Source: a virus
Taxonomy: Duplodnaviria; Caudoviricetes
DNA length: 64,000 nt
Direction: 5' to 3' (one strand)
IMG/VR virus record: IMGVR_UViG_3300035497_000258
Span: 32,001-96,000 of that record
Shown: positions 3,832 to 64,000 of the stretch, piece by piece
Position numbering within the stretch: position 1 is the stretch's first letter
Layout of the letters: each line of letters begins with the position of its first letter
Notes under the pieces: generated by a model
Database searches by the model: none
What the model was told of the DNA's origin: nothing
Seen by the model: the letters and a program-made list of their open reading frames with translations, nothing else
Made by a program: the position numbers and the translations under genes

Positions 3832-6800
3832 TTATCTATTAATATTAACATATTGTATTGCTTCGTTGGTAAGATTCTTAAGAGCTTCTTCAATTTCATT
3901 AGAACTAGTAACATTAGGGAATGTAGCCTCAATATGTACTTGCTACTCTAATGTATTACCGCTAGTAGAAACAGAAGAAGTAGAATTAACCCGTGCGGCC
4001 ATTAGACCTAACCCCGCACTAGCCGTACTATCCAATGCTTCAACTATACTTTGAAGGACATTTGCGCCTAGGGAGCGAACAGCGGAAACCGCAGATAAGA
4101 TGTTGCTAGTATCCTCGGCATTCAGCACTAATTCTTTCTAGTGTAGAAGTGCTAATTTACCACCTTCAAAATCGCCAGTATATCCACCTGTATCGAACTT
4201 TGCATATTCTTTTCTATCTGCATAAGTGAAATAAGCTTGACCGTCTAGTACTTTATCTATATAATCCGTGATTGCGTCATCTTTACCATATTGATTTAAC
4301 AAATCTGTAATTTCATTATTAGATAATTCTGTATCTTTCCAGCCTTTATCCATTCTCATGTCTGCCCATTGACTATAAAGTTCACTGCTAGTGCTATAAT
4401 TAGCATCCTACCACGCTTCTAACATTTTAGTCGAATAATCATCAAAGAAATCTTGCGTAGTAACATTTACTATAGCTCCAGATACTTGCTAATAAGCATT
4501 AACTACATCATATAAAGTTTCAGCTAATTCTTTATAATGGTCTGTCTAAGCCTGAATAGAATTTAAATTAGCGTCCATACTATCAGTAGCTTCTTCTCCT
4601 GCTTTTTCAACTTTCTCAGTAGCCGCAGTAGTATCGTCGATCTACTTAGTTAAATCATCATAAGAAGTACCAGTATCTTTATTAACGTCAGTTATAGTAT
4701 TCTCATAACTCTAAGAAGCTTTTTCCATTTCTTCTATAGCTTTATTAAAAGCTTCATCAAAAGTAGTAGTACTACTAGTCATAGAACCTAAAGCTGTGCC
4801 GTAACTATTATCAAAGTTCTATATGGTAGTAGTACCAGCTTTGGTCATATCATTTATAGCCTTTTGTTTTTCTTCTTCTAAGTCCTTGATCTTCTGCGCA
4901 TAGTATTCACGAATTTCCGCAATCTAAGCTTCACGTTCATCAACAGTAAGAGATTCATCGGTATAAACCTCTTTAATTTTATCTGTCATTTCCTACCAAG
5001 TATCGATTATCTCGCCACTGACGTCTTTAACCTAGTCTTTAGCGATATTATAGTAATTATTAGCGGCATCCAAATAATCTTGATTAGCCGAGTCTATTTC
5101 ACTCTAATCGGCCGTATATTTATAAGTCCAGTTACCCTAATCATCGCGCATTAAGGCAAGAGAAGATTTATTGTTCTATGCTTCTTCTAATGCAATCTGC
5201 TTTAAAGTCATTTCATACTCAGCGTTCATAATATCTATATCATATTGAGATAACTTGTTATTCTAAGCTCGTAATTCACATTCATCTTTTAAAGCCTAAA
5301 GCGTGGCGGCGGCAGCTTTAGAGTTCGACTCATCTATAGAACTTTGAATCTTATTAGTAAGAGTTGTAACTTCATAAAGCTTATTAACTTCATCGAGATA
5401 ACGCTCATCTGTATCAATGAAATTATCATACTACATCTGTAGCAGCGTAAAGCCTTTATTACTAGTTAAAGCTTGCTCTAATTTATAAGCAGCTCGCTCA
5501 ACCGCATTTTCAAAGATAGCTTGAGCAGTCTCCATAGTCTCCTATGTAGCTTCAAGCATAGCTTCCTAAGTATCTTGGTATTCAGTAAGTAAAGCATCAT
5601 ACTGATTTTTAAGCATATCATAACTAGCATCAGCCTCATCTACACCAGCTAGATTAGCTTCCGCAGTAGCCAACATACTCTCTAAATCATCTAGCCATTC
5701 TTTCTACAGCTTAGCTTTTGCCCATGAAGCTTGCATTTTACTATTATAGGTGCTTTGAATGGCATCAAAACCCTAAGCAGTCTTTAGCGATACACCTTGA
5801 AGTGTCATAATTTCTTTAATGGTATCACTAATTGCGGAATTGTGGTCAAGAGTGTCAGTGAACTGCGAGAACCGCTCCGACGCTGCATCTAGGGCATCCG
5901 CAAACCCATTCTCAAATTCTTCGATAGAATCTAATATACTCTCGCCAGATGAGATTATTTCATCGAGAAGGTCATTCATCTAAGACCTAATTTCATCTTT
6001 ATTAGTATCTGTAGTTGCATTATTCCAAGCATCTATTAATTCACTAGCTTGACTTTCAAAAGTCTTGGACATCTCTGCTTCTGTACGAGCATTATCTGCT
6101 GCATAAGCCATAGAAGATAGTCCATGAGTTAAACTATCACCATAAGATTCTGCTATTGTCTTTTGGAAATCGCTATAAGCCTAAAGATTCTCTTTAGCAT
6201 CAAGCTTAATCTAAAGTTTATAATTTAAAGAAGTTAATATGCTATCTAATTTCTTTCTTGTATCATCTCTTATGCCGTCTGTTGTTTCTTTAATAACATC
6301 TAAAGTATCTTCATAATTACCTAGATAATCCTACGCATTACTATACCACTTTTTCATTGCATCTAGCTATGTCTTCGCATTATCTTGCTAATCCGCAGTC
6401 ATAGCATTATAAGAAGTCATAAAATCATTATACGTCTTTTTAATGTATTCTTGCACTTCATCGTAGTTAGTAATCTCATTTGTTTCAGAATCATACTTGA
6501 CGTCTAAACCGAGACCGGCTATTAATTTTTTATCGCTATCTAGGTAACCCTAAGCTTGTTCTAATTTCTTGTTATATAGGTCAATTTCATCATCTAGCTC
6601 TTCTTGGTATTGTTTATAATAAGCTAGTCTATCAGTGCCATAAGCACGTTCCGCATTTTCATCTATTAAATCAAGAAGGTCAGCTTGCTTTTCTAACTAG
6701 CGATTAATATCGTGATAGCGTTCTCCCGCCTCTGTCTTTAAATCTTCAACATCGGGATCTTTAGAAGAACCACTACCCGATCCGGAACCATTTTTACCTG

Positions 6801-9800
6801 AGCCAGAGCCAGAAGTTGCATTTTTTTGAGCGTTATCTAAAGCAGATGAAACAGACTATAATGCCGCAATACTTCCTGCGATTGAACCAGCATTTGCTTT
6901 CATATCGCTTAAAGTAGATTCAAGGCCACTTAAAGCTGTATTAGCAGTATCAAGTTTAGACTAATTAAGCTTATCTTGATTTAATTTAGCGGCCTATCCG
7001 GCTGCAGTGGGAGAAATACCATAAGCTCTACCATCCTATACTCCGCCAGAACTTGTAGACCCAGAAGAAGTACCGCTAGTACCGCTATAGCTTGAACCAG
7101 ATGAACTTTTAGAAGCAGTTGAGCTAGGAACAGTATTCTACGAAACAGCAGAGTGATCTGTGTATCCATTTCCTTCTGCAGCTTCATATGCAGCAGCCCA
7201 AGCCTAACCAACACTATTAGCAGCAGCGACAGCATCTACAGCATGAGCACCTGCAGCATTACTAGCAGAACTAAAAGCACTAGAAGCTGTATTACTTATA
7301 TCTATATAGTTATCAGAAACAGAATCAGTTAAACTACTCGAATTAGAATCAATATCAGAATTAGATTCATCATTAGCAGTAACAGAATCAATCCAAGCCT
7401 ATTTAGCATTTGCTAAAACACTCTATTGCTAAACGATTTGTGCGGCCGCCGAGTCTTCTGCATTTGTGCCAATGGCAGCTATATAAGCTTTATAGAGACT
7501 AATCATTACCTCTAATTCTGTTATATAAGCATTAAGTTTTTCTTGCTCGATTGTTAATTCGTTTATAGCTTCTTGTTTAGAAGCTTCTAGTTTAGACTGC
7601 TAACTATCTATAAAAGCATTAGCAACATTTGCATCACATTGAATCATACCATCTGTTGTAGCTTTGGCATTTTCAAACATTGCGCCATAGCCCTAATCGA
7701 TAAGATTTTCCATCTCATCTATGGTATATTTCCAATCTTCTTGAATTATATCTGTTAAACTCTCAAATTCTTTAGCTAGTCCTAAAGCATTACTTATATC
7801 AGTATCAAAATCTAGCTAGACCTAAGCTTCAATCTATATTTTAGTCTTTTCTAATTCTTTAATCTTTTTATCTAATTCATCAGTATTAGCTGTTAATGTT
7901 ACTTCTAATTCTTCTTTTTTATCTCTTAATTCTTTAGCTCTGTCAGTATCTCCTTCTTTTTCAGCCGCTTTAGCCTGAACTTCAAGAGTTTGTATCTCAC
8001 TCTATAAAGTCTAATTTTTAGCCCGAAGTTTTTCTCCTTCTTTTTCTATCTACTCTTGTTGATTCATTAAAGCTTTATAAGCATTAGCTTCTTCTTGCTC
8101 GGCAATGTCTCTTAAAGCCTAAAGATACTCATGAGAATTTTTATCCTAAATATCTCCAAGCTAAGTATATTTTTCAGCTATTAAATCAAGATTAGCAATT
8201 TGCTCACTATCTAAATCTTCATAACTATCGCCTTCCGCAAAACTACTTAATGCACTCTAAATATTAGAAGCATTTTGACTTGCTGTATCATAATCATAAG
8301 AAATAGAATTACTACCATATTTAACCGAGCTCAACTTATTTAGAACTTCATCTAAAGAATCCATTCCTTCGACATCAATAGTAGCTAAAATTTCCCAATC
8401 TTCAGCAGATAAAAATCTTAATTTACCTTCTAAGCCATTTTCACCGAAAGCATCAATTAACTTTTCTTTAACGCCCTGTACTGTATTTTGAGCGTTCTAT
8501 TCAAACTCTTCTAAACTTATACCAGCAGCTTCTAAATAATTAGTTAAATCTTCTGTAATATACTAAGAATAACCAACGCCTTGACCAATAGCATTATATA
8601 TATTAGCAGTGGTAGCTTTTAAAGAATCCTATTCAACAACAGGTTTTACATAAACTTCTAAATATTCTTCTTCATCATTATCTACCATCGCCATTCTAGC
8701 TTGCTTTAGAGTATCCTAAGCACTAGCTATATCTTCTGCATTATAGGCAAGAGGATTATCAGCATAATACTGCAAAAGGGCAGTATAATTTTCTTCGAGC
8801 TATTCATAATCCTCTTGATTTGCAGAAACGAAATCGGCTTGAGCCTATTCCGCCTAATTTAAAAGAGCTTCATAAGTTTTATAAATCTATTTAGCTTTTT
8901 TGTCGTCCTCGTCAACGCTGTCTAAATAAGCCTAATTTCTAGCTAAATAATTCTCAGCATCTTCTTTCGTATTACCATAAGTAGTTCTGTCTCTACCTTC
9001 GGTTAAATTTTTATAAGCTTTATCCTTTTGAGCTAAGAATGTCTCTGCTTGTGTTTTTTGCTTTTCAGCAGTTAATCTTTCCTATAAGGCTATTTGTCTT
9101 TCAAGAGAAGCTTCTTCAAGCTATAAAGTTCTTAATTCTTCAGCGTCAGTAAGAGAAATAGTATCTTGAGAATTAATTTCTTCAATCCTACTTTTAGTTT
9201 CTTCTAAGCTAGAATTTAAATCATCTAATTTAGATTTTTCTTCATCATATGCAGAATTAGCATCACTAATAGCATCTGCTGCTTCTTCTTGCGTTGTTGT
9301 AAGCGCATCAACGAGCTTTACTGCCCCATATATAGCTGCTACAACAGTACCTATTATAGCGAGTTCTAAAAGTAAAGTCTTTACTAAAGATTTAGAAGCA
9401 GTATCAAGCAATTTTGTAGCTACAGTTCCTAATCCTTTAGCTATAACATTTTTAGATTGAGCCATTGTATCAAGCTCAACAAAAGCGGCAACAAGTTTCT
9501 CACTCTAAAGCAACCCTGCATTTGCAGCCTAAAGCGTAGTATAACCTGTAACAAGAGTAGGAATTACCATACCTAAAGCAGCTAATCCCTAAGTCAATCG
9601 TTCTGTAAATGTTAAATCTTTATCTGTAAAAACATTAACGAGTGTTTTCATACTCTAAATAGCCATGCCTAATGACATAAGCTAATTAGCAACAGAAACA
9701 GTCCTAGCAGCCCAATCTTTCTAACGATTTATGATGCCTTCTAACGTAGCACCAAAACCTTCATATTTTCTAGTGGCTTCATCTGTAACGATAGCAGCAT

Positions 9801-12800
9801 TATTCTAAGCTGTTATATAATTCTAAGTAGAATCTGCTAAAGCATCAAGAGAAGCTCTTAACTGTTGAACTACTTCACTATCATTGCCCAATTTTTCTGC
9901 TAATTGATTAACAATAGAATTAAGATTATTTATATTTCTTTCTGTATCGACAGTAGCCTGTGAAAGCTAATTAAGAACCTGACTAGAATCCTTTAAACTA
10001 ACATTAACTCTATTTAAGCCTACATTATTTAACTATTCTTGTAAATATTTTAATGTATTCTAATATTGTTCAGTTTTCTATTCAGCTTCTGTGGTATTTT
10101 CAGTTAATTCTTTATATATAGCAGTTACAGATTTTAGTTGTGCGGCTTGAGTATAAACATTCTAGTAAGCAGCAGCCAATTTCTACGAACCAGTTGCAGC
10201 TTCGCTAAGATTAGCACTCTTAGAATAATAATTTGTTACTATTGTCTAAGCTTTTTCTAAAGTTAAATTCAACTACCCAATATCCTAGACTTGTTGATTT
10301 ATTGCGGTCTAAGACTCATTAGCAGTAGTTGTAAGCTACTCTCCTAAAGAAATTAAATTTAAAACAGCATTTTTTTCATTAGTAGCAGCTTTAACCTAAG
10401 ATTCATCCATTTGTTTAGATAATTCATATATCTAATTTTCCATCTGGACTTTCTTAGCCAATGTTTGTATTTCAGCATCATTAGTAGTTGCTGCCATAGT
10501 AGCTGCCATATCCGCGGCTAGTGATCTAAACTGCTTATCTTCTTCAGCAGCTAAACCAGTTAATTGCTTAATATTATACTGCGCATCCCGCAGACCTTGT
10601 GCGATTTGATCCTTAAAGAGTGTAGTGGCAGCATATCCGAGTGTTATCATTACTCCCTTTAACCCGCCCATAGCATCAGCTACATCAGCTATGCGATTTA
10701 AAACAGGAGTGACAACATTATCCAATCCGATAAATGTATCAGCATTAATTAAGCTATCATAAATATTTTCTGCGGCCGCCCGTACTCTGTCGCGCGCAGC
10801 CTCCCAGGATTCCGCATAAATGTCTGCTTGCTCTTGAAGCGTTCCTTCTGACCCATAAGCAGTATCAAGGTTTTCTTTAAAAGTGTCATAGTTGTTCATC
10901 AACGCCATGAACTGAGTGTACTATCTAACCATTTAACCCTCTTTATTTCTAAAGAGGATAGACTATATCTTCTTTTCTTTTATAAGAAAAGTCTCCCATT
11001 TCGCTCCGGTAAAAGAGCTACGTCTTTCGACTAGTCGTTGAACTTTATTCTTTATTCATACTTCCAAATATACCCATGATGGGTTTTTTTCTTTCCATTG
11101 CATACATTAGATATTAAATTTGGCAAACAACCCTCATTTTGTCTAGCTGCTTCTGCACAGCTAGGATATATATCTATTAATTCTCCTTGCAAGGTATATT
11201 TACCAACTTTTTTAGCACTTTTATTTAATCCAGTTTGATAGGCATGAACAGAATTCTCTCCGTTCGTTATTTGTTCTAAATTTTCAACCTGATTGTTAGT
11301 TTTATTCCCATCTTTATGGTTAATTACCAAATCTTCTTCTAAAGTACCATTAAATAAACTATAAACAATTCTATGAGCTAATCTACTTATTTTTCTTCCC
11401 TCAATAGAAAAACACCATTCAACGTATCCATCTTTAGTTATTTTTCCCTTTAAAAGATTATTAGTTTTATTACTTTTTGCCCTACCTTTGTTTGAAATCA
11501 TATAAACTGTATCTTTATAAGGTAACCAGATTTCGCCTTCTAAATCACCAGTATATTTAACTCTAGCTTTAACACCATTTGAGCGTTCCTTTAAACCAAT
11601 ATTATAAGCATGATAATTATTTTCACTAATTGTTACCCATTCAAGATTATCAATATTATTATTTAATTTATTTCCATCTTTATGATTCACCACAGGTAAT
11701 TTTTTAGGATTAGGAATAAAATATTCTGCCACTAATCTATGTGCTAAAAATTCATATCTTTTATTTTTATGCCGTAGGCTATATTTCAAATATCCCCCTG
11801 AAATACTTCCCTTTAGCCAATTATTTGTTTTTTGATTAAATAATTTACCATTGTCAGTAATAAAGTATGTAGTTAATTCGTCATTAATTAAAATTTGTTT
11901 CATATATCTCTCCTTTTATTAAATATATATGAATAAAGAATCTTAGCTGCGGATTGTCCATATACCTTTAATCTTTTTACCATACCTTCTACATTACTAG
12001 TCGCCACTAATCAAGTTATTTATTCCTTATTAATTTGGTAATTAAAGCTTTAGGAGTTCCCCGCAATTAGAGAGATTTTAAGCGAGCATTAATAGTCTAC
12101 CCGCTACAGCTTCGGAGAGGGCAATTTGCTCGTCTTGCGCAAGTGTACCCCACTTTTCGCCTATTTCATCTAGGATAGTATCCATCTACTTGAGTTCGCC
12201 ATTACTATCCTTGATATTTACTCCAACAGCCTAGAGTGCTTGTGAATATGAACCTAAAGTAGTTCCATCGTCGAGCGTTTCCCCGAGTTCAAGATCTTGA
12301 ATTCTCGCAAAGAGTGTCTTAACTTAAATATTCTAATAAGTGCGCAACTACTTATTACGTTCTTTTATGAACTGCTTGTAGTTTCCTACAAGAATAGACC
12401 ATATCTTAACCTATTTGGCATATTTAGGTAAAAATCATTTCTTCCGCCATTAGCTTGCGGCTTTACTCCCCTTAGCGGAGATGGTCGTTGAACTTAAAAA
12501 GGTAATATGTCTAAATTAAGGAATTTTCCTTTTCTATAAATTAACTCATATAAAGGAATGTTATATTCTTTACAATAAGCTCTTTTTCTTTCGTCTCTTT
12601 CTTGTATTATCTCTAAAGAGTCTCTAAATATTTCTCGCTCTTCAAAGTGCTATTCACCCTATACTTCTATATAGCATCTTAGCTTACCATCCTCGTATAC
12701 ACCGAAGTCGAATTTCTAAGTACCTAGTTCTGGGACTTTGACTTGCTCTTGAAATTCAATATTTCTATCCTTAAGATAATGAGCAATAAAAGTCTCACCC

Positions 12801-16734: not shown

Positions 16735-17954
16735 TTAACCCCCCGATGTCTCGGAGTCCGCAGGCTTTTCAACAATGCCCTTCTCGCAATCACGTATTAA
16801 ATCAACATCAAGTTCATCTTCATCAATCACCTGAATCAGAGCCAAAACTTTATTATCGCTAAATTTCGTATAAGCGGGGAAAGCATCAACCACAAAGTTA
16901 AAAGTAGAAGGATCACCGCTAGAAGCCATACTAAATGTAAAGTTAGACTGGACTTTACCATTAGGAATAATAAACTCAGCAGGCATATCTCTACCATCGC
17001 TCTCGCGTCTAAACAAGGTATCGCCTTCAATGTAGAAGTTGCCAGAGAAACTATCAGCAGTAATTTCCATCTACAGCGCACCACTCTTTTTTGCAACATA
17101 ATAATCAACTAAAATAATCTTATTAGCTTTAATCTTAGAACAAGTAATTGTAGTATTACCATTACTATAAGTTACTGCTGTAGGTACACAAGGTTCATCA
17201 GTAATATAACCATTATCATCAAGAACCATAATATACATATCCGCATTTTCATTATAATTATCACCAGCAGTTAAATTATTACAAGCGGTAATATGTTCAA
17301 GAGTAATAGTACCATCAACACTTGCTTTAATTTGAGAAGTAGAATGAACATAAACGGGAGCCTCATCTTTAGCAGAAATTAGTCTTGCACCAGATAAAAT
17401 GGAAAATCCTTCAGGAGTTAGTAAAGCATCTTCCATATTAAAAGTAAGAGTTTTCTCGCCGTCCCAAGCAATTAAGCGCGTGTTACCTCGACCCATTATT
17501 ATTCCAATAAGCTCGCTACAGCTTATTGCGTTCTCTTATGAACTGCTATATCTTTATATATACATATAGATTAGACTATATCTTTTTCTCTTATAGAGAA
17601 ATCTTCCATTTCGACCGCCAATCACTTGCGGCCTACGTCTTTCGACTAGTCGTTGAACCTTACTTGAATTCTATATCTTTAGTAAGATATTCAAGCCTTG
17701 GCTGCTGATTGCCTAGTGAGGATTTTTACTAGGTTTTCCAGCAATTAGAAAGATTTGCTAATTCTTATCACTAAGAATAGGGGCAATCATTTACCCTGGG
17801 CATAAACTGTGGTAACAGCACCTTCTAAGCTAGAAGTTTTTAAAGAATCAAAATAAATAACAGGCTCATTCTTTAAGAATTCTCTTGAACCAAGTCTCAT
17901 TCTGCTACGCGCACGGAAAACAACATTGCAAATCTCGCGCGATCCAAACCGCAT
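16735..17954 (-). CDS. Major tail (tube) protein, spliced (17954-17793 plus 17493-16735; 306 aa), one TAG=Gln
   Basis: Splicing restores TVYAQG-GRGNTRLIAWDGEK; C-terminal FTFSMASSGDPSTFNF motif; TAG at 17071-17073 joins the two track ORFs. Confidence 0.82.
17494..17792 (-). ncRNA. ORF-less group I intron (299 nt) in major tail gene
   Basis: Exon ends CAGGGT, intron ends in G; Q AATCAGCAGC, R TTCAACGACTA, S AAGATATAGTC. Confidence 0.92.
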
Positions 17955-24719: not shown

Positions 24720-26306
24720 TTAGCTCATTGCTTCACGATTCTGCAATGTTTTATCAGACTTCTCGTCGTCAGCTTTCTCCGGCCGCCCCACTTCATTCTC
24801 ACTACTATTGTTTTTAGAGGTTGAAGAAGAATGTGCTGCTTGCTACTATTGCTGTAACACATTACTATTCATAGTATTACTAGACATAGGCGGCAGCATG
24901 ATTTCAGACAGATGGAGAATTTCATTCTCAAAATGAGCAGTAGCGATAATACTAGATTGAGAGTGACCTAAAGCTATCTGCGGCAACATCTTAGAATAAC
25001 CAATCTAGGTTTGCTCTTTATACATTTTAGCTATATCTTTATAATTATAAATCGTAGTTTCAAGAATCTCGATTCTAAAATTATATTGAGTTTTATCAAA
25101 ACGCTTAATAATTGTATTTAAAAGCATCTCAAATTGATATACTAAATCTCGCATAGTAGCTTCATCGTTTAAGATAGATTTTTCAAGAGCTGTATTACCT
25201 TCGGTATTAAACAAATTCTGTGAAACACCTAAATTATTATACACTGTTCTTTCTACTCTTTGCAAATCATCGCTGGTTGCAGTCGAGTTATCATCCTGCA
25301 TATCAGCTACTTCTGTATCAGCAAAAGTAGTAAGAACATCAACACCTACTGCTCTCTTCAACATAGTAACTGCATTATTGTGCAGATCTCGAGCTTCATC
25401 GAGGTCAAAGACCAAGTCTCCATTTTTGTCAATCGGCAGCTTTTGGATAACTATTTTCAAGAGCTACTGCATGGTCTTTTTACGGTCGAGTTCTTGTGCT
25501 TCGTCTAAGTCAATGATAGAAGGAATAGCTTGAATGAGAGGCGGAAAATCACTATCATTCAAGTTAAATTTAACTCCAACACCAGGATCAAGCATAAACC
25601 AGCCATAATCATCACCGACATCTTGCTTTAGTTTTCCCTCTTTAAACTTTATATAAGCTTTTTGTAATTCTTTGGGGAAAAGAGACAAGACTTTTAGACG
25701 ATACTAAACATTAGAGAAACAGGAGTCAAAGAATTGGAGATTAACCTCTACGATATCCTATCCATTTTTCTTAAATCTACTTCTACAATAACGTGCGGGA
25801 AGCTGCTAAACCTAGAAGCTACTGCCCTCGTCAACTAGATATCCGTAATAAACACCATCTTTTACTACTGCTAAAGCTATATCGCCAAGAACCTTCTTGA
25901 CGTTAGAATCATCAAAGTAAAATAAAACTTTAGTATAATCTTTAAGTAATTTACTATCATTAGCTTTATCTTTTGCAAATGGCGTTACGTGCCAATCGTA
26001 TCTATAAAGAAAAGCAAGATATTTACAAATTCGTTGATATATTCCGCTAGATTCATAATAGTAATTTGATATTTCTCTTAGAGTATTAATATCTTTGCGC
26101 TTGATAGTATTAAGGATAAAATTTTTATCACCATACTAGCGGTGTGCTTTCTTGAAGCTTCCAATATTTACAACCGCGTCTTCAAGCTTCTTCACACCTA
26201 TACGAACCGCATTATTCTCGGTAGGCACTTCATCTTCTAAAGAATATTGTACTCTACCAAACATATCAAATCCTTTATCATGGATCTCTTCTTGTCTACT
26301 TGCCAA
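24720..26306 (-). CDS. Portal protein (528 aa), TAG=Gln
   Basis: TTG start with AGGAGGTG RBS; track ORFs 25464-25688 and 25005-25460 are in frame; lies between TerL and the protease. Confidence 0.8.
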
Positions 26307-27669: not shown

Positions 27670-30319
27670 TTAGTTAAAGAACATCCAATCTTTAGCGTTA
27701 AATCTCTTTTTTCTTTTGACGTTATCTTCTTCTTGTCTAATATAATATAATCCATAACATAAAGCAGAAAATTTATCTTTTTTAATTGATTTACTTGATT
27801 GTTTTAATATAATATTTATACCTTCACGCTCTTCATAAAGATTAAGTAATTCTTCCTTTAATGTAGAGGTTAAAGTAAATGGCATAAGGTATTCCTCACG
27901 CTTTTCAGGAGTCATATTCTAGCCAACCTTAGTACCCATTAGTTTGTTTTTAGCCAATCTAGGTTCAATAAGGAATTTTAATCTACCACTATTAAGCGCA
28001 GACTAGACTGTAGAATATGCTTCTGTATTGATAGGAGCATTAGCTTTAATAATATAAATTGCTCCATCTTCCGTGTCGTTAGTTCTGAACTTTTTATAAA
28101 AACCTTCTTTATCATTATAGATACCAAAAGGAGGTAAAACCTCACCTTCATGTGTTAGCTAGGCCTTTACCATATAATCTAGAAGTCCAATGCCTACATT
28201 ACATTCTATATAAAACGCTACTCTTATATACGTTCTCTCATGAACTGCTTGCGGTTTCCCGCAAGATTAGACCATATCATCTTCTCATTGAGAAGCTTTC
28301 CGCTTCCACTATCAATAGCTTATAGTGTACTCTCTTTCGAGATGGTCGTTGAACTTTTTCCTTTAAAAAGGAACTTAGCTGCTGATTAGCATATCTTTCG
28401 ACTTAGCTTTCCAGCAATTCAAAAAGTTTGCTTATGCTGTCGCCAACATAAGGGGCTAAACATTTAACCCGTTGCCATCTATCACAACACGTCTAGCATT
28501 ATATTTATAAAAAGTCTCCTTGATTTTAATTGCCTAATCTTCGAAGTGTCCATCTTCTATAGTGTAAATATTAACTAAAGATTTAACAGATTCTCCTTGC
28601 GCGTGCGGCGTTACCTTGAAGACCAAGATCTCGCTATTACACCCCTTACGACCTACATCGACCGCAAGTATATAATATTGACCTTTTGTTGACTTAATAG
28701 TTGCTTCATATTCAGGTTTTTGTAATGTACGGTTAGCGTCAAAGCGCTCACCATCGAAGAAAGCACCCTCCGCAGTTCCAGTCCACTAGCTGCCCAATTA
28801 TCTTAAATACTAGTCGAATTATTCTAGTATCCATATACTGCTTTATCTTTCGATAAAGTTGAGACTATATCATTATTTAAATATATTTAAATATTTTGCA
28901 CTTCGATTTAAGGGGTTTTCACCCACGCCATTATATTCTTGCGCCCTACTCCTATTGTCTTTATGACCTATGGGATAGTCGTTGAACTTTTCTCTATTCG
29001 AGACTTAGCTGCTGATTACCCAATTTGCTTAATTTTCAAACATTCGCACTTAAGTTTATTTCATCTTTATGCTGTAGTTTAAGCAACTCTAAGGGCCTTC
29101 CAGCAATTCACAAAATTTATAGAGTACAGTCTTTTATACTCTCGGTCGAAGGAAGCTTCATCGAAAGTTCCCTCTCTCTTTAAATCACTGACGAAATCCT
29201 TATTAAGCATCCCTGCAAGCACAGGAACTCTATAAGTACCACCTAATATGAAAGCTTTTTCAGGTTCTACTATCATCTAAACAAGAGTAGTGATAAGTTT
29301 TTGGTAAGCGAAACTACCCTTATAACCTGCGGTCGTTATATATAACTAAGCCTAGTTTAAAACTTCATCCTAGTCCTATGAGCCATCTGCCCGCAATCGC
29401 GCAACGTTCATTGTAGGAATTAGAACTTCTTGTAGAATTTTACCATCCATACTAGCACATTCCTCTAATACCCCAGCGTTACGACGTTTACCTCTTGTCC
29501 GCTCATTTGCCGCAAGGTTATCTATAAATGATTTATTTTTAAACCTGTATATACAGTAGTCTTTACTCTCTTTTGTTTTACCTGGTCGTCTATCAATCTC
29601 GTTATCAAATGCAGGAATCATTCGACATATTTCATCCATTTTTTCTTGCAGGATTCCAGCGCTCTGTTGTTTGCCTCCTGCGGAAGTAAATAGTTTAGCA
29701 TTTGGATACAATATAGCTCGTATTATAAGGATTAAAACCGAGAGGAATGATTTACTATCATTGTATTCTAATAAGTGCGCAACTACTTATTACGTTCTCT
29801 TATGAACTGCTTACGGTTTCCCGCAAGATTAGACTATATCTTCATCTCATTTAAATAAATGAGAGTTCCCTATTTCGATTTAAGGGATTTTCACCCACCC
29901 CGTTAGCTTGGGCCCTACTCCTATTGCTCCTATTTCCGCGGGAGCTAAAGGATAGTCGTTGAAGCTTATTTCGTTGCCTGCGGATTCCCATGCTTAGAAG
30001 CGCACAAAATCTAAGTTTAGGGTTCCCGCAATTAAAGGAATTAGGGCAATATCATTCACCCACGCGGATAGACGCAATACACATAGCGATATCGCATTGC
30101 GACTCTTAAAAATACTCTCTAATAAAACTAGAGTTCAAGTTCTTTCTTTCTTGTATCATCTCTACCAGTTTGCATGAAATCCACAAATATATCTGGATAC
30201 ATCCTCCACTAAGCTACATACTATCCAGCAATAGGAAGAATAGCTTTAACTCGCTCTTCTGATAGACCAATTTTATTTCCTCTAGCTTGAGAAAGATTTA
30301 ATAAGTCTTGGAGTGCCAT
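27670..30319 (-). CDS. terL: Terminase large subunit, spliced (30319-30058, 29758-29136, 28794-28467, 28196-27670; 579 aa), TAG=Gln
   Basis: Splicing restores Walker A PRGYSKS, FDREYGSQWTG and the nuclease motif DGNGLGIGL; also RGKRR..GVLEE (Walker B), ITTAG, AVDVGR and KDKFSAL; exon total 1740 nt. Confidence 0.93.
28197..28466 (-). ncRNA. ORF-less group I intron 3 of terL (270 nt)
   Basis: GGG T joined to TA GGC gives G-L-G; Q AATCAGCAGC, R TTCAACGACCA, S ATGATATGGTC; terminal G. Confidence 0.9.
28795..29135 (-). ncRNA. ORF-less group I intron 2 of terL (341 nt)
   Basis: GAG TAT joined to GGC AGC; Q AATCAGCAGC, R TTCAACGACTA, S ATGATATAGTC; terminal G. Confidence 0.9.
29759..30057 (-). ncRNA. 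ORF-less group I intron 1 of terL (299 nt), inside the Walker A codons
   Basis: GGG T joined to AT AGT AAA gives G-Y-S-K; Q AATCCGCAGG, R TTCAACGACTA, S AAGATATAGTC; terminal G. Confidence 0.9.
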
Positions 30320-31578
30320 TAAATCTCCCCCTTTATAGCTAATTCGTGAAGATACTCCATATCTTCTTCGCTCATTTTCTCTTCTTCTTCATAGAACTCT
30401 TGGAAATCTTCTGTGCGGAGCTCATGGTAAGAATCCTTGTAATCAAACAAATGTTCTTCCGCCATAACTTCATCATTCTCGTCATAACCTAATTCGCCAG
30501 CCTCTTTAATAGTTTGCCGCTCATCTTCAAGCTGTCGAATTGCATTTTCGATAAGATTACCAAGTCCCATTTCCTCAGTAACAAGAGTATGAACGTAGTG
30601 TTGTGTATCTTCTATAACTCTATCTACTTTATCTTTAGGTTTATCGACATAGTATTTAGGAATGTAGCCATCTTGTTCACAAAGAACAACTAACTCGCCT
30701 ACTGCATCAATAAACTCGCCCTATTCCGCTTTATTCTAGACGGCGGTAAATTTCCCGCTTTTCATAAGGGTGTCATAGGCCTTGAGCATTTTCTGAAAGT
30801 TATCTATGTCTCCCGCATCTAAAAGCTAATTGGCTTTAAGGGAAGTCTTGCAGAGTTTAATTAAAGTATCTTTATGGCCGGCAGTTTGAATATCATAAGA
30901 AGCCATCATATCATTGTAGAATTGCTCTAATTGAACCCACTCGCTGGGCCGATAGCTAGTTCCCCATTTAATGCGGAGATAAGTTGTATCTTCTTCTGTT
31001 AGCCCAAGATTTTTTTCTTCTTCCAGTATTTCCTAAACAGAAGGAAAGAGTGATGATGTGCCGGAGTCGGAGCTATTAGGATCCTCTTTTCCGGAGATCG
31101 GCAGTTGGGCACTTTCTTCTTCAACTAAACTTATCCACCCAGGTGCCTTTATTAGCTCCTTGTCCTATGCGAGTTCAACCTAGATCTCATCCTCCGATAA
31201 GCCGGAATCCCGCATTGTCTATATGCGCTTTTCCTCTATTTCAGCTTCTATCCGCTCAGTATCGGCCCATCGCGCGGTCTTCCACTGCGACAGCCGCATT
31301 TTAGAGAGATATTTACCTAAGATTGTTTTTCCTGTTAGTGCCTCTAAGTCATTTTCATATTTCTTTAGAAGGCTATCCCATTGTGTTTTGATGTATGGGA
31401 CATCTATTTCTTTGAGTAGAGGCTTAAAAGTCTCTGGGTCAAAGTTATCCACAAGCATCGTCGCGCATTTTTTACACTCGTTAAGCTTGCCATTGGGATA
31501 TTTTTCTAAATTATAAGAAGAGTAAAACTCAGAAGCGTTCATTGTTTGTCTGCAAGTTTTACAATAACATTGTTCCAT
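30319..31578 (-). CDS. Zn-finger protein upstream of terL (419 aa), candidate terminase small subunit, TAG=Gln
   Basis: CxxC...CxxC N-terminus; track ORFs 31219-31599 and 30319-30570 are in frame via TAG; stop overlaps the terL ATG (TAATG). Confidence 0.6.
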
Positions 31579-31580
31579 TG

Positions 31581-32615
31581 TCAGCCCTTCTTTCTGCAAC
31601 TTCTACAGGACTTGCAAATACTGTAGAAAGTATCTTTACTTGCATTATTTCTTGAAAAAAAGATACTGTGGCTTGGCTTTTTTTGCCCACAACGAGAACA
31701 TTTCTTAAAAGGAAGGTCTCTGTAGTGATAATACCAGATTAGATACTCCTCTATAGCGGCGTGCGCAATTAGTTTTGGGATTTTAGTAACCCAGAGATTT
31801 GAGATGTACTCGATAGAGTATGTGGAATCGAATATTTCGCTAAGTCCTTGCTATATTTCAAGATTAGAAGCGCCATCGATCTTGCGCTCGCACACATATT
31901 TTAGTTTAGGCTCGTCCGCAAGAGCTTTGTCGCAAACTCGGTCGAAAGATTCTAAGAGATACCACATATCACCCTCGAATTTACCGTAGGCGTCTTGCCG
32001 CAACTTGGAGTAATTTTGGAGGATTGCACTTACTACTTCGGTACGTAGTAGAGATACTCCTTCTGCTGATATTTCGTAATTGGAGGGTACGGTGACGTGT
32101 TCATCAAGAGAAGGAAAAATGGACTGCGGGCGCGTCAGCTTTTTGGGGATTACAGGCTAGGTATAAGATTGCTTTATGACATACTAGTCTTTCCGCATAT
32201 CTATTATTGCTTTTTTCATTATAAAAGCATCTCTGCCGCTAGCTTTCTTGATAGCGCTCTACCATTGATCTAGCGACTCCCGCAGTTGAGAGAGAAAGGG
32301 AATTGTATCTAAATCGGTTTGTGTAATTGAAATTTTAGGGGTTAGAGGTGTTTGAATATCAGAAACTAGATTGTAAATTCCATCTTCGCCATTTTCGAGA
32401 GAGGAAACTAGGCCTTCGAAGGAAGTTTCTCGTTTATTGATGGTAGCAAGACGGTTTTCAGTAAGTAGTTTACGTTGTTTCTTTTCAAAGCCGAGTATAA
32501 GATAGTCAGCAAGCTTTTCAAGATATTGAGAAGGAGGATTAGGAGTTTCTTGAAGGATTTGGTCTACTAAAGCTTTGCGCTAGTCTAAATCGGTTATTGT
32601 ATAATCTAATTTTAT
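31581..32615 (-). CDS. Hypothetical protein (about 344 aa) with C-terminal Zn finger, TAG=Gln, apparent ATA start
   Basis: Reads IKLDYTITDLDQRK...KKCSRCGQKK...SICKSCR; GAGGTG RBS 8 nt before ATA. Confidence 0.6.
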
Positions 32616-57233: not shown

Positions 57234-57473
57234 ATGAGTTATTTCAGTTATGAAGTTAAGGTTTATTCTACGGAAGCTTGCACAACACTTGAATCTTATC
57301 AAGGTATCGTAACTGCTGAGGATTACCATAAAGCTATGGATCAAGTGATGGATTTTTATGGGGCTGAATATCTTAGTAGTATTCGTCTTGAGGACTGGGA
57401 AACTGAAGGTACGGTTCTTGAGCTTACTGAACAGGCAATTCGTGACTTGAGAGGAGACGAAGCAAATGGATAA
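57234..57473 (+). CDS. Hypothetical protein
   Basis: Promoter and RBS. Confidence 0.55.
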   Translation: MSYFSYEVKVYSTEACTTLESYQGIVTAEDYHKAMDQVMDFYGAEYLSSIRLEDWETEGTVLELTEQAIRDLRGDEANG

Positions 57474-57900
57474 GAATGTGCGGAAACTGCGGCTTGAAAA
57501 CCGCATTAACCTGCTGCAAAATAAGGGTGACTTTAATCAGCGAATTGTGAATAAGTTGAAGCGGGAACTGAGAAAATTCTAGGAACTAAAGTTTACTAGT
57601 ATTGAACTAGTAGATGGAAGCGGAAATGTAGCGATAAAAATTCTTTGATATAAAATAAAAAATATTATATAATATCTATAGAAAGTTGAGGGAAGGCAAT
57701 GTTTGAAATGATTCATTTCACTGGCAACGACCATGAAATTCATCGAGTGTATAATACCTACGATGAAGCGATTGATGAATATAATAGAATGAGGCTCCAT
57801 GGACTTATCTATGAGAATGTCGTTATTGTCGATCTCTCGACCGGAGAAGTCGCTTATGACCATTTAGATGGTTGACTGCTAGGAAAGACTAGCTCGATAA

Positions 57901-57986
57901 GGCGGTGTGATGGAACAGGTAGACATAACGGTCTTAAAAACCGTTGGTTTTATACCGTGAGGGTTCAAATCCCTTCACCGCCACCA
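57901..57986 (+). tRNA. tRNA-Leu(TAA)
   Basis: Cloverleaf with long variable arm, anticodon loop CTTAAAA, encoded CCA. Confidence 0.9.
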
Positions 57987-57990
57987 TTAT

Positions 57991-58063
57991 GCAGGATTGG
58001 CGTAAGATAGCGTATTTGCTCAAAAGGCAAAGAATAGAGGTTCAAATCCTCTATCCTGCACGA
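57991..58063 (+). tRNA. Atypical tRNA-like element (loop TCAAAAG, no U33, ends CGA)
   Basis: Intact acceptor stem GCAGGAT/ATCCTGC and T arm AGAGG-TTCAAAT-CCTCT. Confidence 0.6.
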
Positions 58064-58066
58064 TAT

Positions 58067-58140
58067 GCGGATGTAGTTCAACGATAGAACGCTAGCCTTC
58101 CAAGCTAGATATGAGGGTTTGATTCCCTTCGTTCGCTCCA
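58067..58140 (+). tRNA. tRNA-Gly(TCC)
   Basis: CTAGC-CTTCCAA-GCTAG anticodon arm; TCCA end. Confidence 0.9.
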
Positions 58141-58316
58141 TGGTAGTCTTTAATCTACCTAATTTTAGTTCTTTACTGATATAAACTCCTTTTTAGTATA
58201 GAGGTTTAAGCCGAGGGTTTCTCTATAATATAAACTTCGGCATCTTTTGAAATTTAATAAAAAATATTATATAATATTTATAGAAATTAAGGAGAGCGTA
58301 CTAAGGAGGAAGCAAA

Positions 58317-58430
58317 ATGTTTGACGATTTTGATACTCAGATTCAGAGTGATGAGATGGCATGGAAATATGAGCTTCTTGAGGAGTTAGCTACAGATGTT
58401 CCGGTAGTCCAATCGGCAGGAGACAAATGA
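58317..58430 (+). CDS. 37-aa acidic peptide (MFDDFDTQIQSDE...) overlapping tRNA-Leu(TAG)
   Basis: AAGGAGG RBS and upstream promoter. Confidence 0.5.
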   Translation: MFDDFDTQIQSDEMAWKYELLEELATDVPVVQSAGDK

Positions 58431-58475
58431 TTTAGGTTCATTTCAGTGAGAGTTCGAGTCTCTCTCGGAACACCA
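58398..58475 (+). tRNA. tRNA-Leu(TAG), short variable loop
   Basis: AATGA-TTTAGGT-TCATT anticodon arm; GAGAG-TTCGAGT-CTCTC T arm; ACCA. Confidence 0.85.
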
Positions 58476-58734
58476 GCGATCGCTGCACGTCGCTTAATTA
58501 TTAGATGCAGTAAAGATACGAGTATGGTATCCGGCGCTTCGATAGTCGTTAAAGGTGAGATAAAACTGAATCGAAAAGCGTTACATTGGTTTAATACTTA
58601 AGCTACCACCGGCTTTAGGAGATACGTGGCATTGTGAGAACGCTATATAAGAAGTAAAGTAAAGTATATTCAGGTTTAAGAGTACCTTGGGTTTTAGAAA
58701 CTTGTGAAGCCTAAAACATTGAACTCTTTTATAT

Positions 58735-58808
58735 AGCCGATTGGTGTAGTGATAGCATCCGAGAATTTGACTCTCGTGGTGGAGGTTTGATCCCTTCATC
58801 GGCTGCCA
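58735..58808 (+). tRNA. tRNA-Gln(TTG)
   Basis: CGAGA-ATTTGAC-TCTCG anticodon arm; GCCA end. Confidence 0.85.
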
Positions 58809-58943
58809 TAAAGACGCTTACAGCAACTTTTTAAAACAAGTAATTTGATTAATGTACTTTCAAAAAGTAGTGCCTTTCTTTGCGGAGATTGGATAACAAA
58901 ATTTAAAGCGTCTAGTTTTTATTTAAAAAGGAGCAAGAGAAAA

Positions 58944-59171
58944 ATGATTCATTTTAGTAATTGTGGAACTTGTAACTCTGCTTTTAATTTTAATGCGGTT
59001 TCTGCGGATGCGGCTGCGCGAGAGCTAGCTATGCATCCCGAGTGGGCTAGAGATGAAGTGGCGCAGGACCGGGTTTGCCGCAAGTATGGCATTTTCTTAG
59101 ATCAGATTACAGATGATGAAGCATCTTACATTTCTTCTCTTGTTATTGAATACGCGAGGGCAATGCGATGA
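58944..59171 (+). CDS. Hypothetical protein
   Basis: AGGAG RBS before ATG 58944. Confidence 0.55.
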   Translation: MIHFSNCGTCNSAFNFNAVSADAAARELAMHPEWARDEVAQDRVCRKYGIFLDQITDDEASYISSLVIEYARAMR

Positions 59172-59314
59172 AATTTAAAGATTTAGAAAGAGGTATGTTT
59201 CGCTGGAAAGGCTTAGTTTATACTAAGTTTTGTAGAACGGCAGCGGCTGTTATTACTTCTGGTAAAGTAGTTAGATTTGAAGCAGAAGAAGAGATAGAAG
59301 AAATGTGAAAATAT

Positions 59315-59390
59315 TCTAGTGTAGCTTAGTAGGTTAAAGCCTCCGACTTATAATCGGAAAACTAGGGTTCAAATCCCTACACTAGGACCA
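59315..59390 (+). tRNA. tRNA-Ile(TAT)
   Basis: TCCGA-CTTATAA-TCGGA anticodon arm; ACCA. Confidence 0.88.
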
Positions 59391-59462
59391 AGCGCTTAGC
59401 GCTACATATACCTTGCCTCCAAGTGTTTTTAGTCCTAAGTATGACTTAAAACTGCTTGATAC

Positions 59463-59539
59463 GCGTCAGTGGCCAAGTTGGTAAGGCTCCAAACTTTTAA
59501 TTTGGAAATGCGTGAGTTCAAGTCTCACCTGACGCACCA
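59463..59539 (+). tRNA. tRNA-Lys(TTT)
   Basis: CCAAA-CTTTTAA-TTTGG anticodon arm; ACCA. Confidence 0.9.
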
Positions 59540-59696
59540 TTTTAGACACTCACAGCAACCATTCTAAAGATTTAATGTTATAAAATTTTTGCCTGTGTCT
59601 AGTTATTTTAAATTTAGAAAGGAGAATATGAATGTACGATATTGATGATTTTATTTTTGGAAATGAGACTCCCACTATCAGCAATAGATGAATATG

Positions 59697-59753
59697 ATGT
59701 ATAATGCGGCCGATGATGGTGGTTCCAAGCCCACGCAAACGCAGAGGATACAT
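59697..59753 (+). ncRNA. Twister ribozyme (P1-type) abutting tRNA-Ser
   Basis: ATGT-a-TAA-TGCG-GC-n8-GTGG-TTCCAAGC-CCAC-n5-CGCA-GAG-gat-ACAT follows the twister layout (UAA cleavage loop, CAAGC loop, GAG, both pseudoknots possible). Confidence 0.8.
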
Positions 59754-59843
59754 AGAGGATTACCCAAGTTAGGTTATAAGGGGTCAGTTCGCTAAACTGA
59801 TAGGGCTACGGCCGCAAGAGTTCGAATCTCTTATCCTCTGCCA
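59754..59843 (+). tRNA. tRNA-Ser(GCT)
   Basis: TCAGT-TCGCTAA-ACTGA anticodon arm; long variable arm; GCCA. Confidence 0.88.
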
Positions 59844-60014
59844 TAGTAGATACCAACAGCAAACTTTCTGGTGATTGTAGTATCTAGTTTTAAGGCTTCC
59901 TTCTTACGAGGGAAGCCTTTCTTTTATGCTCAAAACCCTGGACAAAAATATATAATTCATAGTTTTAATTTTTTAGAATACTATGAGATAGTATTGAAAA
60001 GGGGAGACTTGCAT

Positions 60015-60701: not shown

Positions 60702-61454
60702 ATGGTAAAAGTTCTTGACCAAGCTGGTTTAGTTACATTATGGGCGCAAATTAAGGGCTATAATGCAGACGCTATTTCTGAAGCTTTAACTAACTATAAA
60801 ACTAGCTCTGAATTAGTTGAAATCTTAAGTGATTATGTCACAGAAGATAAACTTCAAGAAGCTATTGCAGAAGTTACTACAGACGTAACTAGAGTATTTA
60901 CTTATAAGGGTAGTATTGATAATTATTCTGAATTACCTGCTGATGCAGCTATTGGAGACGTTTATAATGTCATAAATGCAGACGCAGATAATGGTATTAA
61001 TCCTGGTGATAATGTTGTTTGGACTGGAGATTCTTGGGATAAACTTGCTGGCTCTATTGATCTGAGTAATTATGCTACTAAGTCTGATCTTGATAATAAA
61101 ACTACTTAGAGCATTAAAGACGTGAATGGCGAGTCGCTTGTTTGGAATGAAACTTCTGGCGGTGGCGCTAAATTTATTCATACTGATGGTACTGAATCTT
61201 TCGTTGGAGTAAATGATGGTGGCGCCAATGGCATGGTTGCTCAAATTTATGCTGATAAAGAGGTTAATGGCGACTGGATCGGTTCACGTTTAAACGTGTA
61301 TCAAAAAGGTATGTTCTATCACAATGCAGAAGATAAAGCTTCTGGTAATTATGTTGCTGATGATCCTGAGCATGAAGTAGCAGTTAAGAAAGATATCGAG
61401 GCTGTTATTCCTGAAGCCTTAACCGAGGATGAAATTAAAACTATTTGCGTATAA
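60702..61454 (+). CDS. Virion fibre/decoration-type protein (250 aa), one TAG=Gln
   Basis: YKGS....LP...GDVYNV...GDNVVWTG..WDKLAG.IDLSNY motif; two track ORFs joined across TAG 61107-61109. Confidence 0.75.
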
Positions 61455-63079: not shown

Positions 63080-64000
63080 GTGGCAGATTTAGCTAATATT
63101 AAAGTAGGCAGCACCACTTACACTCTAAAAGATACTGCTGCGAGGGATCGTCTTGACATTATTGAGACGACCCTCGCATCAGGACTTATCTTTAAGGGTA
63201 CAGTCTCAAGTGCTGCCGATATTACAGGATTAACGGATTATAAAGTTGGTTGGACTTACAAAGCCTCTGCCTCTTTTAGTATAACAAATATAGGAAGTAT
63301 AGAATCAGGAGACATGATTATTTGTGTTTCTGCGTATAGTTCTTCCTATAAAGCAACAGACTGGACTGTGGTTTAGAATAATGTTGATACATTTACTGGC
63401 GCAAGTGCGAGCACGGCAGGTACAAGGGGTTTAGTGCCCTAGCCTTCCGCAGGTAGCCAATCTAAGTTCTTACGTGGAGACGCGACTTGGGCTTCTATAG
63501 ACTCAGTACCTAAATTAACCACTGCCCGCACAATAACTGTGGACGGCGATGAGTCGGGCTCTGCTTCTTTTGATGGTTCTTCTAATGTTACTATCAATCT
63601 AACTGATAATCGCTTTGTAATGGGCACTCAGACAGCTTCTACCGCAGATTGGACTGGTAATTTACATGGTGTCAAAGCATTATATGATGGACTTTGTATT
63701 AATTATTGGCTTCCTTATGCTTCTGTGAGTAGTACTAATGTTACTTTAAATTTAACTCTCGACGATGGTACTACTACAGGCGCTATTGATTGTTATAGAT
63801 GGGCAACTTCAAGATTAACTACGCATTATGGGGCCAATTATCTTGTTACATTAACCTATCGTTCTGGAGTAAATATTAATGGAACTACTTATACTGGTTG
63901 GTGGGCTACTGGTGATGCAAATTCTACTTACTCTAATGCTTCACTGGGATAGGGATATGTAACGTGCTCAACAGCGGCAGCTACTACTGCCAAAACAGCT
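63080..64000 (+). CDS. Tail fibre-type protein (partial), TAG=Gln
   Basis: YTLKDTAAR; DWTVV(TAG)NNVD; GLVP..AG...FLRGDATW; KLTTARTITVDGD.SGSASFDGSSNV; track ORFs 63080 and 63539 are in frame. Confidence 0.8.

Follow-up and report, generated by a model that had tools for sequence, protein, structure and literature searches.

A predicted P3-less twister ribozyme between a conserved micro-ORF and tRNA-Ser in a phage tRNA operon

Introduction

Why should a fold resembling a self-cleaving ribozyme stand directly against the 5′ end of a phage tRNA gene? The question is raised by a 64,000-nucleotide (nt) stretch of phage DNA (Duplodnaviria; Caudoviricetes), positions 32,001 to 96,000 of the IMG/VR record IMGVR_UViG_3300035497_000258, which will be referred to as the window. 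Here a candidate twister ribozyme lies between a micro open reading frame (micro-ORF) of 19 codons and a gene for tRNA-Ser(GCU), the three together forming the last unit of the window's tRNA operon (Table 1). The twister class is said to have been described by Roth et al. in 2014. Twister biology has been called largely speculative (PMC5408937), and the natural roles of these abundant and fast ribozymes are still presented in that way (PMC5408937; PMC6765202). For ribozymes of bacteria and phages in general, a 2019 review relates the proposal that they process polycistronic transcripts (PMC6765202). The locus described here supplies a defined setting in which such a role can be considered, and the evidence below leads us to lean towards a model in which the ribozyme would sever the precursor of tRNA-Ser from translated RNA upstream.

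Anatomy and identity of the twister element

Judged from its sequence, the element is a genuine twister of type P1 that lacks stem P3. Stems P1 and P2 are separated by the internal loop L1, L2 is followed by a short linker, and P4 is closed by L4, the whole being drawn together by the pseudoknots T1 and T2. According to PMC5408937, the type-P1 class is defined by P1, P2 and P4, by optional stems P0, P3 and P5, by T1 together with T2, and by about ten highly conserved nucleotides in L1 and L4. All of these structural features are found in the window element, which leaves the curated Rfam score as the one point at which it falls short. The same paper describes a conserved A at the scissile step, cleavage at an N-A step beside P1 that leaves 2′,3′-cyclic phosphate and 5′-OH ends, and a T1 of three Watson–Crick pairs in solved twisters. 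A preliminary description of this locus, made from the sequence alone, had been concerned that one pseudoknot contains only three clear pairs; T1 does have three, and the concern is moot because solved twisters have three as well (PMC5408937).

The Rfam twister-P1 model (RF03160), named as a check in the preliminary description, matches positions 59698-59752 over its full length (1-68) with 50.9 bits and an E-value of 1.4e-10 in a search of 421 nt. In the alignment the consensus letters UAA (cut after the U), GCC, GGU-CCAAGCCC, AAA and GAGG are all matched by the window, and the predicted cut between U59702 and A59703 agrees with that of the consensus, as had been proposed. One pair of T1 is U-A where the Rfam consensus has C-G. 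The score does not reach the Rfam gathering score of 67.2 bits, which counts against the assignment, and a scan of the window at gathering thresholds lists only tRNAs and four group I introns, with no twister. The alignment traces this shortfall to the deletion of the optional P3 stem. Moreover, the phage tRNA-array twisters found here all score between 31 and 58 bits, including those that do have P3, so that the gathering score is strict for this subfamily and misses it as a whole.

Could the element nevertheless be an inactive relic, a chance look-alike or a structured spacer? Its score would allow this, as would folding of the isolated ribozyme to its minimum free energy (MFE), which gives a stability no better than that of shuffled sequences (z 0.11), and so would a 3-nt duplication that the window linker carries in comparison with the nearest relative, G001. 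However, a strict twister letter pattern occurs once in the window, where 0.00 occurrences are expected, as it was absent from all of 100 shuffles that preserve dinucleotides, the nucleotides of the catalytic core are all intact, and compensatory changes occur in P1, P4, T1 and T2 of relatives. An unremarkable MFE is expected, as nearest-neighbour models cannot represent pseudoknots; the low score is the rule throughout the subfamily; and the duplication is confined to the variable linker that replaces P3. A relic or look-alike is thus very unlikely, and the window twister is probably active as a ribozyme.

Table 1. Features of the tRNA-Ser end of the tRNA operon in the window.
Feature	Position	Strand	Description	Basis
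Upstream tRNA array	57901..59539	+	tRNA genes with interspersed short ORFs	ARAGORN; Rfam tRNA
Shine-Dalgarno-like site	59617..59624	+	GAAAGGAG, 7 nt ahead of the micro-ORF start codon	
Micro-ORF	59632..59691	+	conserved, 19 codons, MYDIDDFIFGNETPTISNR, stop TGA; strong ribosome-binding site	
Twister ribozyme, type P1 without P3 (predicted)	59697..59753	+	P1, L1, P2, L2, 7-nt linker, P4/L4, pseudoknots T1 and T2	
P1	A59697-A59701 with U59749-U59753		5 bp	sequence reading
Predicted scissile step U-A	59702..59703	+	followed by A59704	aligned to RF03160 consensus UAA
P2	U59705-G59708 with C59740-A59743		4 bp	sequence reading
L2	G59709-C59711		GCC; then 7-nt linker 59712-59718 in place of optional P3	
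P4	G59719-G59722 with C59731-C59734		4 bp; encloses L4 loop GUUCCAAGCC	
T1	U59724-C59726 with G59746-A59748		UCC with GGA, 3 pairs	
T2	G59709-C59710 with G59729-C59730		GC with GC	
tRNA-Ser(GCU)	59754..59843	+	class II, 90 nt, encoded CCA, 13-nt variable insertion	ARAGORN; Rfam tRNA, 47.0 bits
Intrinsic terminator	59892..59929	+	12-bp stem with 6 GC pairs, U-rich tail; closes the tRNA operon	

Relatives and covariation

None of 50,697 phage records matched the module in a blastn search. Pattern searches of IMG/VR were more productive: a generic twister pattern was found in at least 108 stretches, and one with a U-A pair in T1 in 89 stretches (complete scan). G001, the nearest record, is a phage contig of 136 kb from IMG/VR and has 31% of the window's words in common. 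Its module is 98% identical to that of the window, has a linker 3 nt shorter and scores 50 bits with RF03160.

The secondary structure is strongly conserved. Among the matches listed there are 102 unique viral twister cores; P2, which occurs in many different sequences, is fully paired in 97 of them and P4 in 98, while the variable pair of T1 is U-A in 69, C-G in 31 and U-G in two, with no mismatch. The 17 members of the subfamily that share the P2 sequence UGCG/CGCA were aligned (A1). Standard pairs occupy 95.4% of the cells of this alignment, as against 25.7-46.5% after displacement of the 3′ partners by 1-3 columns, and T1 and T2 are paired in all 17 sequences (100%). Six pairs, four in P1 and two in P4, show changes on both sides, and the observed covariation score was reached by none of 500 shuffles. 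The pseudoknots are likewise held by compensatory change in more distant relatives: T2 is altered from GC/GC to AC/GU in the loci L197 and L217, and in L217 the middle pair of T1 is altered from C-G to A-U. These two twisters score 48.5 and 31.3 bits, respectively, with RF03160, and that of L217 escaped detection by the model built here (R1). Together with the RF03160 match and the full set of conserved nucleotides, this covariation bears out the twister identity first put forward.

A pistol ribozyme in the spacer of L217 was also considered and rejected, the model RF02679 giving only 12-bit matches located elsewhere and RF03160 showing a diverged twister. No ribozyme family other than twister was matched in six sister tRNA arrays (Rfam, E up to 0.001), nor in the tRNA array of the window (Rfam, E up to 10 for 59540-59960 and up to 1 for 57400-59700).

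A specific link to AGY-reading serine tRNAs

The fold ends and the tRNA begins at adjacent nucleotides, as had been described at the outset; the tRNA boundary is given alike by ARAGORN and by Rfam, and the last nucleotide of P1, U59753, is therefore position -1 of the tRNA. With its long variable arm, GCU anticodon and 3′ CCA, the tRNA has the features of a class II tRNA-Ser.

The arrangement is recurrent. An isotype-neutral scan, which asked for the 3′ half of the twister and then a GTTCGA T-loop 55-85 nt further on, returned 14 viral, 28 metagenome and 2 genome-collection stretches. Among the gathered loci the twister 3′ half has 181 matches, and a tRNA starts within 20 nt of 32 of these (13 unique modules); in 32/32 cases, or 13/13 unique modules, it is tRNA-Ser(gct). 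Viewed from the side of the tRNAs, a twister stands at the 5′ edge of 13 of the 16 unique tRNA-Ser(gct) genes, versus none of 371 unique tRNAs of 40 other anticodon classes.

Four sequence-distinct twister lineages abut their tRNA. The gap between P1 and the tRNA is 0 nt in the window/G001 type, 3-4 nt in the L041 type, which comprises several variants with differing tRNA bodies, and 1 nt in the lineage of L113 and L147, all with Ser(GCU). In the fourth lineage, that of L182, the gap is 2 nt, the twister has P3, P5 and a C-G pair in T1, and the tRNA is Ser(ACU), which is also a reader of AGY codons (Y, pyrimidine). In each of these four types the nucleotide at position -1 is U, which agrees with the preference of RNase P. 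In L113 and L147 the twister abuts tRNA-Ser(gct) behind an unrelated ORF of 28 codons, and in L197 and L217 it is separated from a downstream tRNA-Ser(gct) by 40-55 nt that contain hairpins. The link between twister and tRNA is thus specific to AGY-reading serine tRNAs and recurs in several diverged phage lineages.

Two peculiarities of the window tRNA were observed. Its anticodon loop, 59786-59792, reads UCGCUAA, so that position 33 is C and not the U found there almost universally; the loop of G001 is identical, and the tRNA-Ser genes of L041 and L113 have UUGCUAA. In addition, the twister segment GCAGAGGAUA (59741-59750) could pair without a mismatch with the 3′ end of the tRNA, UAUCCUCUGC (59832-59841), since AGAGGAU is shared by the ribozyme and the 5′ acceptor strand of the tRNA. 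In nearest-neighbour folding of the precursor, both before and after cleavage, this 10-bp mispairing is favoured over the native acceptor stem. The window lineage could on that account profit from rapid removal of the ribozyme; the mispairing is absent from the L041 and L113 types, and so is probably incidental.

A small, evidently translated gene upstream

The micro-ORF ends 5 nt before P1 and 10 nt before the predicted cut site. Homologues stand before twisters in diverged phages (MMDIDDFIFAETEVIHSDR; MFHDVDDLIFSAEEDKKYHSTK; ...NHQDIDDFIFGDEEPIISQK) and share the motif D[IVL]DD[FLM]IF ... S-x-[KR]-stop, with AAGGAGG or AAAGGAGG as the Shine-Dalgarno site at the equivalent position. In a first census the motif preceded 11 of the 125 unique twister contexts among the matches listed, and a dedicated scan extended the family to at least 45 unique contexts. 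Six core variants, recovered by scans that were blind to the ORF, differ at six third, two first and no second codon positions and keep the frame intact. The wider set agrees with this, with the limit that some of its members were chosen by a search pattern in which certain positions are fixed. Such a pattern in an unbroken frame is the signature of a translated gene, and the micro-ORF is, on this sequence evidence, evidently translated. Its peptide matches no Pfam or PHROGs family, and the comparison thus brings to light a conserved, unannotated family of micro-proteins in phage tRNA arrays.

The only serine codon of the window micro-ORF, AGC at 59680-59682, lies three codons ahead of the stop, and a Ser-AGY codon takes this place in all variants from scans that did not require it; the dedicated scan did require AGY, so its matches are no evidence for conservation of the codon. 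This invites the idea of a translation-gated switch, in which the point that a ribosome has reached along the micro-ORF would decide whether P1 can form and so provide feedback on the supply of tRNA-Ser(GCU). The stop codon is close enough for such coupling, since typical ribosome footprints imply that a terminating ribosome would cover P1, and an AGY-reading serine tRNA follows the micro-ORF in 16 of 45 contexts among the matches listed. Against this, AGY is equally kept before tRNA-Gln (5 contexts), tRNA-Trp (2 contexts) and protein genes, which weakens the notion that tRNA-Ser is sensed. The distance from stop to cut site ranges over 8, 10, 14, 15, 16, 18, 21 and 44 nt, which weakens that of strict steric coupling, and a single codon makes a weak sensor. 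We regard the switch as improbable. A broader form, in which micro-ORF, twister and AGY-reading serine tRNA would be one device and a pause or termination near P1 would meter the release of pre-tRNA-Ser, is also doubtful. Were it correct, it would represent a natural translation-sensing ribozyme switch by which a recoded phage tunes its own tRNA supply. A classical leader-peptide attenuator was rejected, there being one AGY codon and no alternative hairpins in the 5 nt between the stop and P1.

What follows the micro-ORF is less uniform than the ORF itself. Among the 45 contexts listed, a twister of the strict pattern is followed by tRNA-Ser(gct) in 11 and by something else in 13. In the others no pattern twister was recorded, and the next tRNA is Ser(gct) in 4, Ser(act) in 1, Gln in 5 and Trp in 2, with none within 120 nt in 9; at least L197, L182, L217 and L228 among these cases have a twister by covariance model. 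The partners other than serine tRNA, where micro-ORF and twister are both present, are a structured RNA followed by tRNA-Pro, or a protein gene, the latter in the phage phAss-1.

These contexts allow a rival explanation, namely that the ribozyme serves the micro-ORF, by setting or destabilizing the 3′ end of the small message or by insulating it, and that tRNA-Ser is only its commonest neighbour by descent. The strict-pattern twister is without tRNA-Ser in 13 of 24 micro-ORF contexts among the matches listed, so that the constant partner of the ribozyme may be the micro-ORF and not the tRNA. The loci L018, L070 and L072 change right after the ribozyme core while ORF and twister stay constant, and many other phage twisters lie 10-40 nt past the stop of an ORF. 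This explanation leaves unexplained why L113 and L147 combine twister and tRNA-Ser(gct) with an ORF of another kind, why an abutting tRNA is always an AGY-reading serine tRNA and never one of the 371 other unique genes, and why four diverged lineages have all retained a spacing of 0-4 nt between P1 and the tRNA. We consider it possible, and clearly the less likely of the two.

The same junction bears on the idea of a mobile or recombining cassette, in which the micro-ORF and twister would move as a unit among phage tRNA arrays and the ribozyme would benefit the cassette. In L018, L070 and L072 the micro-ORF and twister core are like those of L043 and L114, and the sequence is wholly diverged right after GAGGA; this leaves a P1 of 3 bp and shows a junction of recombination at the ribozyme's 3′ limit. 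Such a sharp boundary, and the variety of partners that the unit precedes, are what a cassette would produce. No integrase, homing endonuclease or repeats were seen beside the unit in the window, however, and the serine-specific partner is left without account; we think a cassette unlikely to be the explanation.

Members of the micro-ORF family also occur without a twister, as in L111 (4393-4452), where one precedes tRNA-Gln with a hairpin between, and in L260 and L200; the gap in twister-less cases is 17 nt to tRNA-Ser(gct) and 36 nt to tRNA-Trp. Judged by these occurrences, the micro-ORF seems to be a small gene that phage tRNA arrays carry in general. The structured RNA between twister and tRNA-Pro is about 90 nt long and is seen in L043 (about 9382-9470) and also in L003, L081 and L114. 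It has two T-loop-like motifs and a long stem, GCUAGGU...ACCUAGC, that covaries to GCUGGGU...ACCCAGC in L003; the copy after the L043 twister has no Rfam match at E up to 1.

Proposed processing of the transcript

The model towards which we lean is that the twister severs pre-tRNA-Ser from translated RNA upstream. In the proposed sequence of events the transcript would fold into P1, P2 and P4, be locked by T1 and T2, and be cut after U59702. The upstream product would contain the tRNA array and the micro-ORF with its stop codon retained, and would end in a cyclic phosphate 10 nt after the stop. The downstream product would begin with a 5′-OH and consist of a ribozyme body of 51 nt (59703-59753) fused to pre-tRNA-Ser. 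The short and AU-rich P1 of 5 bp would then fall apart, its 5′ strand departing with the upstream fragment, and this would expose the end of the leader, UACAU with U at -1, for RNase P. The host RNase P would make the mature 5′ end between 59753 and 59754, so that the two cuts would excise a 51-nt spacer; their order could also be reversed. The net effect would be to uncouple a ribosome-loaded message from pre-tRNA-Ser.

Because the site at which a twister cuts is at its 5′ edge, the ribozyme cannot itself make the mature 5′ end of the tRNA, for which RNase P would still be required. The preliminary description had envisaged a ribozyme-assisted route for cutting up a tRNA polycistron, different from that of the hepatitis delta virus (HDV)-like theta ribozymes, which process the 3′ trailers of tRNAs in gut phages, often recoded ones. 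The tie to tRNA-Ser on which that proposal relied is sound. The expected parting of two tRNAs is replaced by one of mRNA from pre-tRNA, because the element upstream is a translated micro-ORF and not a tRNA, and a mature tRNA end could not be made as theta ribozymes make one on the 3′ side, as cleavage would leave the ribozyme body on the tRNA.

Several observations weigh against the severing model. Three of the 16 unique tRNA-Ser(gct) genes have no twister, and in L260 the micro-ORF stands 17 nt before tRNA-Ser(gct) with no twister found by an RF03160 search. The other tRNAs of the window array do without a ribozyme; that for Ile at 59315, for instance, begins 6 nt beyond the end of a possible ORF of 46 codons. 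The non-serine contexts of the micro-ORF and twister, given above, point in the same direction. A compact ribozyme left on the tRNA after cleavage might hinder rather than help RNase P. Finally, the relatives were gathered by pattern and model searches, so that the proportions reported are not population frequencies. The array tRNAs that lack ribozymes, L260 and the non-tRNA partners in particular keep our preference for the severing model a guarded one.

Relation to known ribozymes

The window element resembles other type-P1 twisters (RF03160) in P1, P2 and P4, in T1 and T2, in the conserved nucleotides of L1, L2 and L4 and in the N-A step beside P1. It differs from them in the missing P3, the lower score and the U-A pair of T1, and in having a defined and conserved context, a phage tRNA array in which it is preceded by a micro-ORF and followed by tRNA-Ser. 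The proposal in PMC6765202 follows the same logic, in which one transcript is cut into parts with different fates; here, by comparison, the parts are known and unlike in kind, a translated micro-ORF and a tRNA precursor, and their pairing is conserved. The twister would in this way gain a concrete natural context, a single cut between a small gene and one specific tRNA precursor.

The closest parallel is with the theta ribozymes, which are likewise joined to tRNAs of TAG-reassigning Caudoviricetes of the mammalian gut and are proposed to help in processing them (PMC10879173). Theta ribozymes belong to a different, HDV-like class and lie on the 3′ trailer of a suppressor tRNA, whereas the window twister lies on the 5′ leader of tRNA-Ser(GCU) (PMC10879173). 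Both cut at their own 5′ edge, with the difference that an HDV-like ribozyme trims the 3′ end of the tRNA directly and the twister stays on the tRNA. No HDV-like family was matched in 59540-59960 or 57400-59700 at the thresholds given above, Rfam possibly lacking a theta model, and the HDV-like nested double pseudoknot 3′ of a tRNA was not found, the window fold being that of a twister 5′ of the tRNA. If cleavage is real, phages would draw on two ribozyme classes in handling their tRNAs, and would do so at both ends of the tRNA. The words twister and hammerhead do not occur in the text of PMC10879173, and no literature report of a twister adjoining a tRNA was found, with the limit that supplementary lists of twister and theta ribozymes could contain cases.

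A second parallel is phAss-1 (OQ749652.1, ‘Caudoviricetes code 15 clade’), likewise a gut phage of about 136 kb in which TAG is a sense codon, and which has large arrays of tRNA genes as well as genes for suppressor tRNA(CUA). Its TAG codons are reported to be translated as Gln, and its host is likely to belong to the Eubacteriales (PMC10607447). An unannotated twister of 56.2 bits is present on the minus strand of this phage at 109029-109085, flanked by the 29-aa hypothetical protein WIC39700.1, which is a homologue of the micro-ORF product, and by the next coding sequence. The phAss-1 twister therefore precedes a protein gene where that of the window precedes tRNA-Ser. In the text of PMC10607447 the terms ribozymes, twister and introns are absent.

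Phage and operon setting

The recoding suspected in the preliminary description is confirmed by in-frame TAG codons in genes of the window. Reading TAG as sense opens the minus-strand genes of 1-32219 and, on the plus strand, 60702-61454 and 63080-64000. The tape-measure ORF (3832-10932, minus strand) has 83 in-frame TAGs in 2,366 codons and the portal gene (24720-26306, minus strand; phrog_2739, E 5e-85) has nine. The portal protein is 40.6% identical to that of phAss-1. In G001 a gene for suppressor tRNA(CUA) lies about 4 kb past tRNA-Ser(GCU), just beyond the point corresponding to the window's end, and no ribozyme match was found beside it. By these sequence features the window derives from a TAG-recoded gut phage related to phAss-1.

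The array upstream of the module encodes tRNAs Leu-UAA, Phe-AAA, Gly-UCC, Leu-UAG, Gln-UUG, Ile-UAU and Lys-UUU. Only two strong sigma-70-like sites are present, at 57645 and 58247; the interval from tRNA-Lys to the micro-ORF has none, and the array and the twister module are probably co-transcribed. Two of the array tRNAs, Phe(AAA) at 57991-58061 and Ile(UAU) at 59315-59390, have anticodons that are unusual for bacteria-type decoding; both are also present in G001.

The four group I introns of the window (75-108 bits) lie on the minus strand within the recoded late-gene block, at 17552-17802, 28248-28475, 28841-29175 and 29810-30134, three of them within 2 kb of one another between the ORFs 27670-28173 and 30319-31617. 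Sister arrays contain further structured RNAs: a ROOL RNA in L142 (5384-5984, 299 bits) and in L043 (11801-12394, 287 bits), and a transfer-messenger RNA (tmRNA) in L113 (6163-6447, 75.5 bits).

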